Assembly (NCBI GenBank): GCA_008080735.1
Contig: SHMW01000045.1
Location: 1-34,158 of the forward strand
Length of the DNA stretch: 34,158 nucleotides
Direction: 5' to 3'
Origin: Promethearchaeota archaeon
GTDB taxonomy: Archaea > Asgardarchaeota > Lokiarchaeia > Sigyniarchaeales > SOKP01
Within the stretch, counting starts at the first letter, position 1. Each line of letters opens with the position of its first letter. The translations under genes and the position numbers were made by a program. Shown one piece after another: positions 13,725-19,471 of the stretch. Under the pieces are notes generated by a model that did not search any database, was not told the origin of the DNA, and saw nothing but the letters and a program-made list of their open reading frames with translations.

Positions 13725-14315
13725 TTGTTTATAATGGATATGAGTAAAAAAAAAAAGTTTAATGAGCTGCTCGGAATTGATGATGATGACAAAAAGATCA
13801 TCGAAATGATTGAAGAGAATCCAGATATTACACATAGTGATATTGCTAAGGAAATAGAAAAGAGCCAACCCGCAGTAGGTGCGCGCATTATCAAATTAGA
13901 ACGAAAGCATCTCCTAACTAAACAAGTTGGGTTCAATATTAAGAAGGTTGATATTAAAACCGCGATCGTGTTTATCTCTACCAAAGATGTCGATGATATT
14001 GTAGAGAAAATACAAGGGTGTCCATTCATCAACCATGCATTTAAGATATCTGGAGATTATAATGTGCTCTGTTTTATCGCAGCCGCCGACCTACAGACTA
14101 TTGAGCGGTTAGTAGATTTATGCTTCCGACGGGATCCGAATGTTCTTTCCGTCAAAACCAATATTCTGATTGACAGTATTCACGACTTCGTTGTGCCGAT
14201 AGATTTTCAAATTGAGGATTTTGATGGACGATACTGTGGCCCCGACTGTCATCTTAAAACAGATATGCCGAAATTCAAATTCGAACAAGAAGAAGCAGAA
14301 GAACCAGAAGCTTAA
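13725..14315 (+). CDS. Lrp/AsnC family regulator with Cys-containing tail (paralog 1)
   Basis: IDDDDKKII..SQPAVGARIIKLE HTH; CPF, ISGDYN, CGPDC. The real start is probably the ATG at 13734 or 13740. Confidence 0.92.
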   Translation: MFIMDMSKKKKFNELLGIDDDDKKIIEMIEENPDITHSDIAKEIEKSQPAVGARIIKLERKHLLTKQVGFNIKKVDIKTAIVFISTKDVDDIVEKIQGCPFINHAFKISGDYNVLCFIAAADLQTIERLVDLCFRRDPNVLSVKTNILIDSIHDFVVPIDFQIEDFDGRYCGPDCHLKTDMPKFKFEQEEAEEPEA

Positions 14316-15435: not shown

Positions 15436-17289
15436 CTAATCATCTTCCTTGTTTTTTTCAATAAATCGATAATCAATATAGAGCCACAAATATCCGAATA
15501 TCGCAGCAAGGATCGAGGAAATAAGAATTCCCAGTTTTGATTGAATGATAAAAAATTCCTCATAATAGGCCAGTTCGGTCACAAATATCGCACTTGTAAA
15601 TCCTATTCCTCCCAAAATGGCTGCGCCAAACAATTCTCGGAAGTTCATATTTTCAGGGAGTTCACATAATTTTGATATACAGCAACCAATATAAGAAAAT
15701 AGAGAGATGCCAATTATTTTTCCAAAAATCCCGACAATGATCCCTATCGGGATTGGTTGAAAAACGTTTTGAAGTAGATTGGTATTAATTAGTACGATTC
15801 CCGAATTTGCGAGAGCAAAGATCGGCAGAACCAAAAAATGGACTTGTTCGTTCAGTGTTTCTTCCAGTTTAGATAAAGTTGGTGTTGCTTCTCTTGCTAC
15901 TCGTTGTAGGGTAAATAAAGCTTTATCCACCTCTTCGGTTGTATTTGAAGTATCTGTTTCAGTTGCATGTTTATACTCTTCTAGGGTTTCCCAGCTAGTT
16001 TGGATAAAGCCAGATGGGTCTATTTTTGGTTTTAATGGAATAGTAAACGCTAAAAGTACCCCTGCTAAGACGGGGCTTATGCCAGAGTATAAGAAAGCAA
16101 TCCATGCACCGACTCCGATAAGAGTATATATTTCGCTCCGTTGAATTTTCAGCGAATTGAAAAAAAATGCAAGAAGAATCCATCCTATTCCAATTAGAAC
16201 AGCTAACCAATTAATTCCTTCTGCATAAAAAACAGCTATTACCAAAATACCTCCTATCGCATCTGCTACAGCATAGCTCATAAGAAAAATACGCGATGAA
16301 TCCTTCACTTTAGATCCTAAAAGCAATAAAACCGTCAATGCAAGTGCCACATCTGTCGTAATTGGAATAGCCCAACCTCTTATTGTACCCGATTGAAGAT
16401 TAAATAAAATGAATATAATGCCAGGAAAAATCATCCCTCCTACTGCAGCCATTATTGGGAGACATGCTTCCTCAAATGAAGATAATATACCCTGCTTAGC
16501 TTCTCGTTTAATTTCTAATCCGATCATAAAGAAGAATAATGTCATTAGTCCTTCATTAATCCATTCTTTTAAAGAAAGAATCAGTTCAAAATCCCCAATT
16601 GCAATTCCAATGGGGTACTCCCAAAAATCCAAATAAAATGATCCAAATATATTTGCCAAAATCAGGCCTACAACAAAACTAGAAATAAGCAAGAAACCAC
16701 TGGTAGCTCGTAAAGAAATTTTTTTTTCAATAGGATCCAAGATATACTCTTCAATGGGACCTTCTTCCTCACGCTCTTCAAGTAATTTCTTTGGTTTCGG
16801 GCTCGGTTCTGCTTCCGCTTCTAATTTTAGTCTTTCAAGATCAAATGCCGTTGGATCAAAATTCTCTTCAATATACTTGTATATTTCATCTCTTATCCTC
16901 CTAAAGATAGGTTTGAGATCCTTCGCTTCATTGTTTCTTGGAGGGCGCTGAATATTGAGGTGGGTATAATTTTTTCCCTCTGGAAATGAAGGACTCGATT
17001 CTACACTATCATCATATAGCGATACTACATAGTCAAATACCTTTTCACCTAAACTTTTTGTATGGCTATCAGAATGCTGTTCTGAAATATCAATATCTAT
17101 TTCTTGCATCACGTCGATTGCTATAGGGTGAACTTCTTTAGGATCCGTTCCAGACGTAAAAATCTCGTAGTGGTCCCCATATCTTGATCTCAAAATTCCT
17201 TTTGCCATCTGTGAACGGACACTATCTGAAGGGCTTAGAAACATTACAAGCAATTTTTCATTTTCTTTCTCATCATTAGAGTTAGACAT
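15436..17289 (-). CDS. nhaA: Fusion of degenerate ArsC/LMW-PTP domain with NhaA-type Na+/H+ antiporter
   Basis: N-terminal FLSPSDSVRSQMAKG..FRRIRDEI; C-terminal WINEGLM, GLEIKRE, GWAIPITTD, PIFALANSG and GIGFT. The ATG at 17289 is preferred over the TTG at 17328. Confidence 0.88.
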   Translation of the reverse strand: MSNSNDEKENEKLLVMFLSPSDSVRSQMAKGILRSRYGDHYEIFTSGTDPKEVHPIAIDVMQEIDIDISEQHSDSHTKSLGEKVFDYVVSLYDDSVESSPSFPEGKNYTHLNIQRPPRNNEAKDLKPIFRRIRDEIYKYIEENFDPTAFDLERLKLEAEAEPSPKPKKLLEEREEEGPIEEYILDPIEKKISLRATSGFLLISSFVVGLILANIFGSFYLDFWEYPIGIAIGDFELILSLKEWINEGLMTLFFFMIGLEIKREAKQGILSSFEEACLPIMAAVGGMIFPGIIFILFNLQSGTIRGWAIPITTDVALALTVLLLLGSKVKDSSRIFLMSYAVADAIGGILVIAVFYAEGINWLAVLIGIGWILLAFFFNSLKIQRSEIYTLIGVGAWIAFLYSGISPVLAGVLLAFTIPLKPKIDPSGFIQTSWETLEEYKHATETDTSNTTEEVDKALFTLQRVAREATPTLSKLEETLNEQVHFLVLPIFALANSGIVLINTNLLQNVFQPIPIGIIVGIFGKIIGISLFSYIGCCISKLCELPENMNFRELFGAAILGGIGFTSAIFVTELAYYEEFFIIQSKLGILISSILAAIFGYLWLYIDYRFIEKNKEDD

Positions 17290-17533
17290 TTTCAATAAAG
17301 TAAGCTTAAAAGATTCTCTAAGTTGCAAGATATTGCCAGAATAATTTAAAAATTGCGTTTAAAAATCTTAAGAAACCTTTGTATAGTCTAAATTGAGTTA
17401 AGCGATTTTAGGATAAATGATAGAATTCACGCAGTCTCTCTTATATTACACATAATAAAGATTTACAATCAAGAAAGAATCACGAAAAATGAAGGAAATG
17501 AACCTTCATAATATTAATGAGAAAAAAAAAGGT

Positions 17534-18085
17534 TTATTCTTCTTTTTTTTCTGCTTCTTGTGCTTGTTTCCATTTGCAGTTCGGGCCGCAGCCTTCCTCG
17601 ATTGTTGGATTATGATTTTCGGAATCAAAATCAATCGGAAGGATTAAATCTTTGGCGATGTCCGTCACTATCTCCATTGAGACGTTTTGAACATCTTCTT
17701 GGTTGCGGAAATGAAAATTTATAATGTTATCTAACTTTTCAAGCTGGGAACTCGCTAGCATAATGCAAATGTTATGTTCTCCGCTTAATCGAAATGCATT
17801 TAACATGAAAGGACAATATCTGGCCATGTCCATGATCTCTTCTGGGTTACGGGTCTTTAATTCTACTGTCGCGAGATATAAATCAACACGTTTAAAATTG
17901 ATACCGGGCTGGAATTTTAGAATACCATTGCTTTCTAATTTCTTAATCCGCATACCTACGGTCGGTTGACTGCGATCTATTTTTTGTGCTATTTGGGTAT
18001 GTGTCATATCGGGATGCTCCTGTACAAGCGTGATGATCTTGCGGTCTATCTCGTCCAATTCTAATCGTTCACTAATCATTGTCAA
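17534..18085 (-). CDS. Lrp/AsnC family regulator with Cys tail (paralog 2)
   Basis: LDEIDRKII..SQPTVGMRIKKLE; CPF, LSGEHN, HNP..CGPNC. Confidence 0.93.
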   Translation of the reverse strand: MTMISERLELDEIDRKIITLVQEHPDMTHTQIAQKIDRSQPTVGMRIKKLESNGILKFQPGINFKRVDLYLATVELKTRNPEEIMDMARYCPFMLNAFRLSGEHNICIMLASSQLEKLDNIINFHFRNQEDVQNVSMEIVTDIAKDLILPIDFDSENHNPTIEEGCGPNCKWKQAQEAEKKEE

Positions 18086-18191: not shown

Positions 18192-18746
18192 TCAGTTTTC
18201 AGTAAGCAGATATTGATGGCAAAAATCACACTCTTCGATGCAATTTTTATGATTAGTCGGATCATGGAGTTGTTGCTCTTCGAATCTCACGGGAATAGTG
18301 AAATCCTTCGCAATGTCTAATACAATTTCTACTTTTACTCTATTAGAATGCGGACTTTTCCGAAAATGGGTATTCACAATCGCATCTATATATTCTAGCT
18401 TAGTACTCACAATTAACAGCACGATGTTATAATCTCCGGATACTGAGAAGCAATTCAGAACAAATGGACAGCATTCAGCTAATTCAAATATTTTTTCTGG
18501 ATTTTTTGTCTGAATATTCACTCTCCCCATATAGAGTTCGACGCCCCTAAAATTTACTCCTGGTTGGATAAGAAACGCCCCAGATTTTAGGAGCTTCCTA
18601 AGCCTAATTCCTATTGTTGGTTGGCTCCTTCCAATGAGCCCAGCTATTTCATTGTGGGTCATATCTGGGTTTTCTTGTAAAAGTGTTATAATTTTTCTGT
18701 CGACTTCATCAAAATGTAATTTTTCACTTAGGGTCATTTTCACCAA
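18192..18746 (-). CDS. Lrp/AsnC family regulator with Cys tail (paralog 3)
   Basis: FDEVDRKII..SQPTIGIRL; CCPF, VSGDYN, HDP..CIEECDFC. Confidence 0.93.
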   Translation of the reverse strand: MVKMTLSEKLHFDEVDRKIITLLQENPDMTHNEIAGLIGRSQPTIGIRLRKLLKSGAFLIQPGVNFRGVELYMGRVNIQTKNPEKIFELAECCPFVLNCFSVSGDYNIVLLIVSTKLEYIDAIVNTHFRKSPHSNRVKVEIVLDIAKDFTIPVRFEEQQLHDPTNHKNCIEECDFCHQYLLTEN

Positions 18747-18931: not shown

Positions 18932-19471
18932 CTATATTAAGGATTCCTGCGTACAAAAGGGACACTCCTTAATACATTGGTCGGGATTGATGGGATTATG
19001 TTCTTCTTGCTGCTTAAATTTGACGGGTAAGATCAAATCATTGGCAATATCAACCACGATATCCATCTCGACCTTCTTAATATCTTCATGTATGCGATAG
19101 TGATCATTTACTATTGAATCTATATACTTCAAGTCCGTACTTACGAGCAACATGAAAAGATTATAATCTCCGGAGATTAAAAAACAATTGAGCACATACG
19201 GACATAATTTTGAAACATTGAAAAATCTTTCAGGGCAATCAGCATCCATTCGGACTCTTGCCATATGAATATCAACCGCTTTGAAATTTATACCGGGTTG
19301 GATGCCAAACATGTTAGTTTTCAGTAATTTCCGCAGTCTAATTCCCACAGTTGGCTGCGAACGTTGAATAAGCTGTGCTATTTCATCATGTGTAAGCGCA
19401 GGATCCTTTTGAAGGAGTGTGATGATTTTTTTATCGATTTTATCGAATTTTGGTTTGCTATTTGAAACCAT
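18932..19471 (-). CDS. Lrp/AsnC family regulator with Cys tail (paralog 4)
   Basis: FDKIDKKII..SQPTVGIRL; CPY, ISGDYN, HNP..CIKECPFC. Confidence 0.93.
   Translation of the reverse strand: MVSNSKPKFDKIDKKIITLLQKDPALTHDEIAQLIQRSQPTVGIRLRKLLKTNMFGIQPGINFKAVDIHMARVRMDADCPERFFNVSKLCPYVLNCFLISGDYNLFMLLVSTDLKYIDSIVNDHYRIHEDIKKVEMDIVVDIANDLILPVKFKQQEEHNPINPDQCIKECPFCTQESLI

Follow-up and report, generated by a model that had tools for sequence, protein, structure and literature searches.

The stretch of DNA analysed here in full (the window, 34,158 nucleotides, contig SHMW01000045.1 of the Promethearchaeota archaeon assembly GCA_008080735.1) carries a gene, P0001, in which an ArsC/low-molecular-weight (LMW) phosphatase-like domain, a linker and a full-length NhaA follow each other in one frame. 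It is one of 11 distinct pseudo-ArsC-NhaA fusion proteins of Asgard archaea (Loki/Promethearchaeota, Heimdall and Odin), and in P0001 the second aspartate of the D163-D164 pair of Escherichia coli NhaA has been replaced by alanine (DD, D-E and D-A denote below the residues found at these two positions). We favour, although with slightly less than even confidence, the view that P0001 is a maintained Asgard NhaA equipped with a dead ArsC-fold regulator and acting as a cation/proton carrier of changed selectivity or stoichiometry. These fusions apparently form an Asgard-archaeal family without prior description, and a full-text search of the literature, with supplements outside its reach, found no account of a fusion between ArsC or the LMW phosphatase (LMWP) and NhaA; the D-A and D-E forms and the picture of the family given here are new.

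Architecture of the fusion and its ArsC-like domain

The membrane part of P0001 (Table 1) is a member of the NhaA family by its profile and by most of its signature residues. It matches Pfam Na_H_antiport_1 (PF06965) over residues 192-603 with 380 bits (cut-off 23.5, E 1e-113) and passes the equivalog cut-off of the NCBIfam model NhaA TIGR00773 (318 bits against 254), it departs from the family at the D163-D164 pair of transmembrane helix (TM) V, which reads D343-A344, and it probably adopts the NhaA fold with 12 TM helices and crossed half-helices. The N-terminal domain has the LMW phosphatase fold by profile, its match to Pfam LMWPc (PF01451, residues 15-136, 27.6 bits) being marginal but above the gathering score of 23.2, and it fails as an ArsC, with 72.2 bits for the NCBIfam model arsC_pI258_fam TIGR02691, whose equivalog cut-off is 174.3. 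A preliminary description of this locus had spoken of an intact open reading frame (ORF) and of two fused domains that are both altered in their catalytic residues, and the single open frame, the Pfam and NCBIfam matches and the alignments agree with both statements. The public NCBI protein (P0344, 630 amino acids) starts at TTG 17328, 13 codons upstream of ATG 17289; because the first residues of the orthologues P0002 and P0003 align with ATG 17289, this is the likelier start codon. All public names returned for fusion genes, which covered D-A, D-E and DD members, read only 'Na+/H+ antiporter NhaA', and the ESM Atlas gave for P0002 generic NhaA clusters only (0.83).

Alignments made with HMMER to solved ArsC chains (1jl3, 1jf8), followed by codon read-out, confirmed the report of the preliminary description that the three ArsC cysteines are replaced (C10, C82 and C89 by S19, Y92 and S99), that the general acid D105 is lost (R115, the following Pro being kept) and that the P-loop Arg is retained (R16 is R25, with S17 kept as S26). 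The P-loop shows in addition the changes T11 to P20 and N13 to D22, both absent from that description, and C15 to V24. The catalytic set C10, C82, C89, D105 and N13, whose roles are set out together with that of R16 in PMC9807832, is replaced completely. Likeness to the thioredoxin-coupled ArsC proteins of S. aureus pI258 and B. subtilis (1jf8, 1jl3) nevertheless extends over the whole domain (E 1e-13 to 1e-15), with R16, S17 and the DIS motif kept, and the best-scoring PDB chains for the domain (2ipa_B, 1jf8_A) are engineered Cys-to-Ser mutants. Among 38 columns at least 80% conserved in stand-alone relatives, the D-A clade keeps 25 and four DD fusions (P0124 and the three from Odin) keep 30, the losses falling at catalytic positions.

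Cys occupies the nucleophile position in none of the 11 NhaA fusions (10 have Ser, 1 has Gly). The ACR3/SBF and aquaporin fusions, which likewise join an LMWP-fold domain to a membrane carrier and are read as arsenate reduction coupled to arsenite efflux, differ in keeping this Cys (5/5 and 12/12), as do 15 of 17 PhoU fusions, these counts coming from one hit list and one P-loop search. Since the nucleophile is missing in every member, comparison of the family indicates that the domain is a non-enzymatic module for which Cys-based arsenate reductase or phosphatase activity would be impossible, in agreement with the earlier statement that P0001 is not a reductase. The same absence from all 11 fusions indicates a loss of the nucleophile as old as the fusion itself. 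The replaced codons do lie one base away from Cys codons, as the preliminary description had remarked, but this is no sign of a recent lesion: Ser is ancient at the nucleophile position, where P0001 has AGC and three Odin genomes have AGT, which fits a single old Cys-to-Ser change. STYX and other pseudophosphatases, like substrate-trapping mutants with a Cys-to-Ser exchange, also keep the P-loop Arg without the nucleophile and serve as binding modules, although they are of another fold family and from other organisms.

Outside the NhaA fusions, 93 of 103 aligned stand-alone relatives have Cys at the nucleophile position (91% of filled rows), 7 have Ser, 1 Asp and 1 Glu, and one row is truncated. 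The nine free proteins of this Cys-less kind (P0139, P0141, P0153, P0176, P0177, P0181, P0231, P0169 and P0214) include some that also lack C82/C89; loss of the nucleophile thus recurs among ArsC-fold proteins that are not fused. The 17 PhoU (PF01895) proteins with an LMWP/ArsC-like domain lie within P0359-P0418, and two of them have Gly at the nucleophile position.

The equivalents of R16 and S17 are kept in the D-A, Odin and P0124 members, which are those present in the N-domain alignment. ArsC positions 13 and 21 (D22 and K30 of P0001, 17200-17226) covary, being D/K in seven fusions (the five D-A proteins, P0351 and P0353) and N/E in four (Odin, P0124), with N in 101 and E in 98 of the stand-alone relatives. 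The Lys at position 21 may stand in for the K+ ion of pI258 ArsC, the D/K pair possibly forming a salt bridge in place of a bound cation. A 'putative potassium pocket' has been described around Q18, V34, S36, G43, N45 and T63 (PMC6193951), and the same paper reports binding of oxyanions (sulfate/arsenate) by the ArsC P-loop. Gating by an oxyanion, as put forward in the preliminary description, is plausible for the family and is weakened in the D-A clade by the changes of T11 to Pro and N13 to Asp.

The ion-binding core across the fusion family

The preliminary description had suggested looking for the same fusion and substitutions in relatives, and this search yielded the 11 fusions, five of them with D-A. 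The first protein search found two full-length relatives, P0002 (92% identical, from a Lokiarchaeota metagenome-assembled genome, MAG) and P0003 (74%, JGI), all remaining matches being at most 42% identical and confined to the NhaA part; cluster look-ups added P0345, one residue off P0001, and P0346, 21 residues off P0002. These five proteins constitute the D-A clade, and all of them have S/Y/S at the ArsC cysteine positions. Full-length fusions with 38-39% identity, the P-loop S-TFNS[VIA]-RS and C82, C89 and DD kept were found in three small genomes when 400 genomes of the phylum were searched. A profile of the N-domain and linker searched against longer proteins recovered P0347-P0349, P0124, P0353 and P0351, whereas a full-length alignment profile gave as fusions, among the matches listed, only three D-A proteins. 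P0347-P0349 are the Odin-type fusions already seen in the three small genomes (matching L009-L011), P0349 being named Candidatus Odinarchaeum yellowstonii. No further D-A member was present in the GTDB species genomes, and a metagenome scan with P0001 gave a single match, a distant NhaA (L038, 35% identity). A contig scan with the N-domain alignment, which relies on generic ArsC patterns, returned 80 ArsC-like loci with a credible Ser-type P-loop in none; one P-loop had Gly (L084), and two with Cys lay in ORFs longer than 330 amino acids (L076, L086).

Five of the 11 fusions are of the DD type (P0347-P0349, P0124 and P0353; Odinarchaeum yellowstonii WEU40182.1 and Promethearchaeota MAGs are among them). 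They share with P0001 the architecture, the linker motifs and the missing nucleophile and fall in one clade with it, and differ in keeping D164; H225 is kept in P0124 and P0353, and C82/C89 in the Odin proteins and in P0353, a protein of Promethearchaeota MAGs in which Gly takes the place of the nucleophile and D105 is kept as well. The D-E form is represented by P0351/P0431 (MBD3191964.1), whose cluster includes a protein recorded under the name of a Heimdallarchaeota MAG. This sister of the D-A clade is 54-55% identical to it and has the P-loop SPHDSVRS, as in P0003, and Y82, T131, G167, A342 and T/S341 in common with it, but its motif AVIDEIGG places Glu at position 164 and it keeps D65, I134, L152 and H253.

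In a first NhaA tree, built without P0351, the D-A stem measured 1.54 changes per column and the D-A clade was not joined to the DD fusions, with a weak support of 65; constraining the tree so that its nine fused rows formed one group raised the log-likelihood by 4.75 units (approximately unbiased test, p 0.646). After addition of P0351 and P0353, the 11 fusions formed an exclusive clade in a 65-row tree of the NhaA domain (Shimodaira-Hasegawa-like approximate likelihood ratio test, SH-aLRT, 98), D-A and D-E being united with a support of 100, where their common stem measured 0.97 and that of the D-A clade 0.57; both trees are of a 'quick' type with long branches, and their support values are to be taken cautiously. 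The tree topology indicates that the fusion arose once, and P0001, with its Cys-less LMWP-fold domain, linker and NhaA, falls within the fusion clade. Added domains are also seen on bacterial NhaA proteins of 530-629 amino acids (P0011, P0042, P0059, P0078, P0089 and P0111), which carry DsbA/thioredoxin-like domains (PF01323, PF13462), N-terminal and with a CPHC motif in P0011; an added redox-type domain on NhaA hence recurs outside archaea.

P0001 matches E. coli NhaA (1zcd, 4au5, 7s24) in full length across both aligned blocks (E ~1e-72), with an extra N-terminal extension of 185 residues and about 49 residues (424-472) between the blocks, where E. coli NhaA has about 5 and most homologues share the stretch. 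Alignment to 4au5 and 1zcd with codon read-out identified as kept T132 (T312), D133 (D313), D163 (D343), K300 (K524), G338 (G563), E78, R81 and E252, and as changed D164 (Ala), H225 (Ser), A131 (Thr), M341/S342 (Ser/Ala) and D11 (Arg). The preliminary description had read the D164 equivalent as Ala, with those of D133 and K300 retained, and SGISP in place of SGVHA; all of this is correct, the latter being the change of H225 to S405. The replacement at position 164 is exceptional: in a MAFFT alignment of 224 sequences, made up of the listed database matches of at least 330 amino acids and of ORFs from 29 Asgard loci, Asp was present in 221, and Ala was found only in P0001 and its two nearest relatives, while D133 and D163 were Asp in 224/224. 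This alignment was used in place of a regular-expression survey of the DD motif, which had left 28 sequences unmatched. Positions of the pH gate are altered as well, D11 to Arg, H253 to Glu and H225 to Ser.

Examination of about 90 NhaA columns, chosen for a conservation of 90% or more among 217 other NhaAs, placed these replacements in a series. Deviating columns number 18-20 in the D-A clade and 17 in the D-E sister, against 9-12 in Odin, 5 in P0124 and 2 in P0353, and in those 217 NhaAs the median is 2 and the maximum 11. The D-A clade and the D-E sister have in common A25G/S, E87I/R, A131T, F136L/I, P149K/N, I161V, A167G, H225S/N, T227V/I, A272S, M341S/T and S342A, as well as the charge reversal to Arg at the position of D11. 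D164A, I134V, L152S, F190K, P471T, D65E and H253E set the D-A clade apart from its sister, although some Odin proteins also carry D65E and H253E. By inspection, many of the changed positions cluster around the ion site, in the unwound segments of TM IV and TM XI and in TM V. Taken together, the comparison indicates that the ion-binding core was rebuilt stepwise on the branch leading to P0001, first as seen in the D-E sister and then in the D-A clade of Loki.

The variation within the D-A clade, compared at the protein level, points to purifying selection having continued after this rebuilding and to a gene that is selectively maintained. Within the clade, residues differ at only 3 of the 90 family-conserved columns but at 121 of the 324 variable columns (Fisher p 4e-12), and in the N-domain 4 of 38 conserved columns vary against 26 of 95 others (p 0.04). 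P0001 and P0003 are 81% identical in the N-domain, 72-76% in the membrane blocks, 75% in the linker and 61% in the loop 424-472; between the D-A clade and P0351 the linker falls to 21-28%, with both domains at 52-56%. The reading frame is intact in five assemblies of the clade.

Genomic setting

The host genome (4.1 Mb, 140 contigs, 93% complete, 7% contamination) yielded no second NhaA and no match to PF00999, MnhB or NhaC. Among the 135 species genomes of the host's GTDB family, NhaA scored above the family cut-off in one only, and a second genome has a weak NhaA fragment with four stop codons; PF00999 was found in 4 of 31 relatives sampled. Archaea of this family are thus mostly devoid of classical cation/proton antiporters, and the status of P0001 as a lone NhaA hence forces no antiporter role upon it. 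In a whole-genome scan for LMWPc the fusion scored 31.4 bits, against 66-95 bits for the five other LMWPc genes of the genome. Two of these (68.8 and 75.5 bits) lie on another contig (C7, 24247-28991), 3-4 kb from an ACR3-like SBF gene (141.7 bits); gene content suggests that this is probably the real arsenic cluster of the genome and that arsenic handling is encoded away from the fusion.

Four Lrp/AsnC-like paralogues flank the fusion gene, and its further neighbours in the window encode a flavodoxin/4Fe-4S protein, a Prismane-family protein, a hemerythrin and a cysteinyl-tRNA synthetase, with no ars, ion-homeostasis or oxyanion-pathway genes among them. A 15-base site resembling an Lrp operator was looked for upstream of the fusion and not found. 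The fusion gene probably has its own promoter, as suggested by the poly-T run after the upstream gene and by the AT-rich, TATA-like tracts before the ATG.

Table 1. Features of the fusion gene and its surroundings, in window coordinates
Feature	Position	Strand	Basis
Whole fusion ORF P0001, 617 amino acids and stop	15436..17289	-	ORF reading; Pfam and NCBIfam matches
ArsC/LMW-phosphatase-fold N-domain, predicted catalytically dead (residues 12-145)	16855..17256	-	Profile matches; ArsC alignment
P-loop S19-P-S-D-S-V-R25-S26	17212..17235	-	ArsC alignment; codons
S19 (AGC) at ArsC nucleophile C10 position	17233..17235	-	Alignment; codons
Y92 (TAT) at ArsC C82 position	17014..17016	-	Alignment; codons
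S99 (AGT) at ArsC C89 position	16993..16995	-	Alignment; codons
R115 (CGC) at ArsC general-acid D105 position	16945..16947	-	Alignment; codons
Charged linker and pre-TM1 segment (residues 146-185)	16735..16854	-	Faster-evolving than either domain
NhaA membrane domain (residues 186-606)	15472..16734	-	Pfam; NCBIfam; E. coli NhaA alignment
TM IV unwound motif T311-T312-D313-V314; E. coli A131-T132-D133-I134 (A131T, I134V)	16348..16359	-	Alignment; codons
D343-A344 = E. coli D163-D164; D164 equivalent Ala (GCG 16258..16260)	16258..16263	-	Alignment; codons; survey
S405 at E. coli H225 position	16075..16077	-	Alignment; codons
K524 = E. coli K300, kept	15718..15720	-	Alignment; codons; survey
S566-A567, TM XI unwound segment (E. 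coli M341-S342)	15589..15594	-	Core-column comparison
Upstream spacer	17290..17533	-	Poly-T after stop of upstream Lrp-like gene; AT-rich TATA-like tracts before ATG (by eye)
Lrp/AsnC-like paralogue	13725..14315	+	HTH_AsnC and AsnC_trans_reg matches
Lrp/AsnC-like paralogue	17534..18085	-	HTH_AsnC and AsnC_trans_reg matches
Lrp/AsnC-like paralogue	18192..18746	-	HTH_AsnC and AsnC_trans_reg matches
Lrp/AsnC-like paralogue	18932..19471	-	HTH_AsnC and AsnC_trans_reg matches

Transport role and competing explanations

Under the reading we favour, P0001 would no longer be a canonical 2H+:1Na+ NhaA. It would still carry a monovalent cation against protons, making use of the D163-K300 pair, of D133 and of the hydroxyls acquired with T131 and S341; its selectivity would be changed and its stoichiometry lower, probably 1:1. 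Retained transport is favoured because D163-K300, D133 and T132 are all kept, and also because position 7 of the motif of cation/proton antiporters (CPAs) tolerates Glu, a dead D163N mutant was rescued by two second-site changes and K+-selective clades are recognised by a Ser or Thr in the first or fourth position of the motif (Masrati et al. 2018, PMC6181914); the Thr that P0001 has in the first position would accordingly suggest a preference for K+. The Na+-sensitive salt bridge between D163 and K300, the proposed role of K300 as proton carrier and the binding of Na+ by D163 in simulations (PMC9606361) point in the same direction. The N-domain would lie on the cytoplasmic side, directly before TM1, and would have no enzymatic role but regulate the cytoplasmic funnel or pH gate; this placement suits control of access to the funnel because in E. 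coli NhaA Asp11 of TM1 belongs to the pH gate on the intracellular side (PMC9606361).

Several points weigh against this reading. All CPAs tested cease to transport once the D164 carboxylate is lost (PMC6181914), and retained antiport would need compensation; of the only two candidates for a compensating carboxylate in the core, E386 lies at a helix end (position 206 of E. coli NhaA) and E246 corresponds to the change D65E, and neither is convincing. The K+ idea is one correlation rule from one paper (PMC6181914), Pro11 and Asp13 in the P-loop of the D-A clade should weaken anion binding, and the transport and ligand-binding roles proposed for all 11 members are predictions from sequence. The gene is dispensable for organisms of this kind, as an NhaA scoring above the cut-off is missing from 134 of the 135 family genomes. 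The D-A clade consists of five sequences of one shallow lineage on a long branch, with two rows flagged for atypical composition in the first tree; the conserved columns were defined on the same 217 sequences that served for the outlier comparison, and the selection test is a protein-level comparison.

The alternative closest to the preliminary description, which had spoken of a gated transporter or transceptor rather than an antiporter, is that the membrane part is no cation/proton exchanger and instead works as a ligand-gated carrier of another solute or as a non-transporting sensor, the P-loop binding an oxyanion or phospho-ligand. We consider it unlikely, although several observations favour it. 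All the other 221 sequences surveyed have Asp at position 164, which among CPA positions is the one conserved most strongly (94% of all CPAs) and whose Asp is regarded as essential for transport (PMC6181914), 18-20 of the roughly 90 core columns and the pH-gate positions are changed, R16 and S17 of the P-loop, which in ArsC binds sulfate or arsenate (PMC6193951), persist in the D-A, Odin and P0124 proteins, and other proteins of NhaA fold, Acr3 for example, take non-cation substrates. However, the same dead domain sits on intact-DD NhaA cores in 5 of the 11 fusions, which makes it look like a regulatory add-on to antiporters, so that its presence implies no loss of antiport. The D-E sister, which links DD to D-A, speaks for gradual retuning of the cation site rather than its abandonment, D133, D163, K300, T132 and G338 are all kept, Pro11 and Asp13 disfavour anion binding, and the neighbours in the window include no oxyanion-pathway genes. 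The intact DD cores and the D-E sister leave the 'rather than antiporter' of the preliminary description unsupported as worded. Stated more broadly, we hold it possible, if doubtful, that P0001 is a naturally selected NhaA-fold protein working without the D164 carboxylate, whether by exchanging one proton against a cation, perhaps K+ or NH4+, by way of the D163-K300 pair and new hydroxyl ligands, or in a non-cation substrate or signalling role, and gated by a dead ArsC-fold sensor.

Unchanged function as an ordinary Na+/H+ antiporter, D164 being dispensable in this background, appears improbable to us: P0001 is the sole NhaA of a genome in which PF00999, MnhB and NhaC matches were not found, and the public annotation reads NhaA, but with 134 of 135 family genomes lacking NhaA above the cut-off and 27 of 31 relatives lacking PF00999 the role need not be filled, and the loss of one of two carboxylates must alter the stoichiometry under either published mechanism (PMC9606361). 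That both domains are instead decaying under relaxed selection is very improbable. The missing catalytic residues in both domains, the long stem branch and the absence of the gene from the other 134 family genomes would fit decay, whereas five independent assemblies all have an unbroken frame, the differences within the clade keep away from the family-conserved columns (3/90 against 121/324), and conservation of the N-domain equals that of the membrane domain, with drift in linker and loop. The preliminary description had named as a sign of simple decay orthologues with Cys and DD together with relaxed selection here; DD is indeed present in the more distant fused orthologues, and C82/C89 in part of them, but selection here is not relaxed. 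An arsenic module, in which arsenate reduction would be coupled to efflux as in the ACR3-ArsC or aquaporin-ArsC fusions, is scarcely credible. Its best named N-domain matches are indeed ArsC and such fusions to ACR3 and aquaporins exist, yet P0001 lacks all three redox cysteines where those fusions (5/5 and 12/12) keep the nucleophile, two far better-scoring LMWPc genes stand beside an ACR3-like gene on another contig, and no ars genes occur within the window.

The family comparison points to the Cys-less ArsC-fold domain being a recurrent and conserved regulatory module on Asgard antiporters, and the plain annotation as NhaA hides both this dead domain and the altered ion site. The parts played by D163, D164 and K300 as carriers of ions and protons are disputed between a two-aspartate and a salt-bridge model (PMC9606361). 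DD (Odin, Promethearchaeota), D-E (Heimdall) and D-A (Loki) make up a graded natural series on one selected background, a natural experiment in the rebuilding of an ion site that could show whether D163-K300 alone carries a transport cycle. If P0001 does work without the D164 carboxylate, this three-step series would help to dissect which residues of NhaA carry ions and which carry protons.

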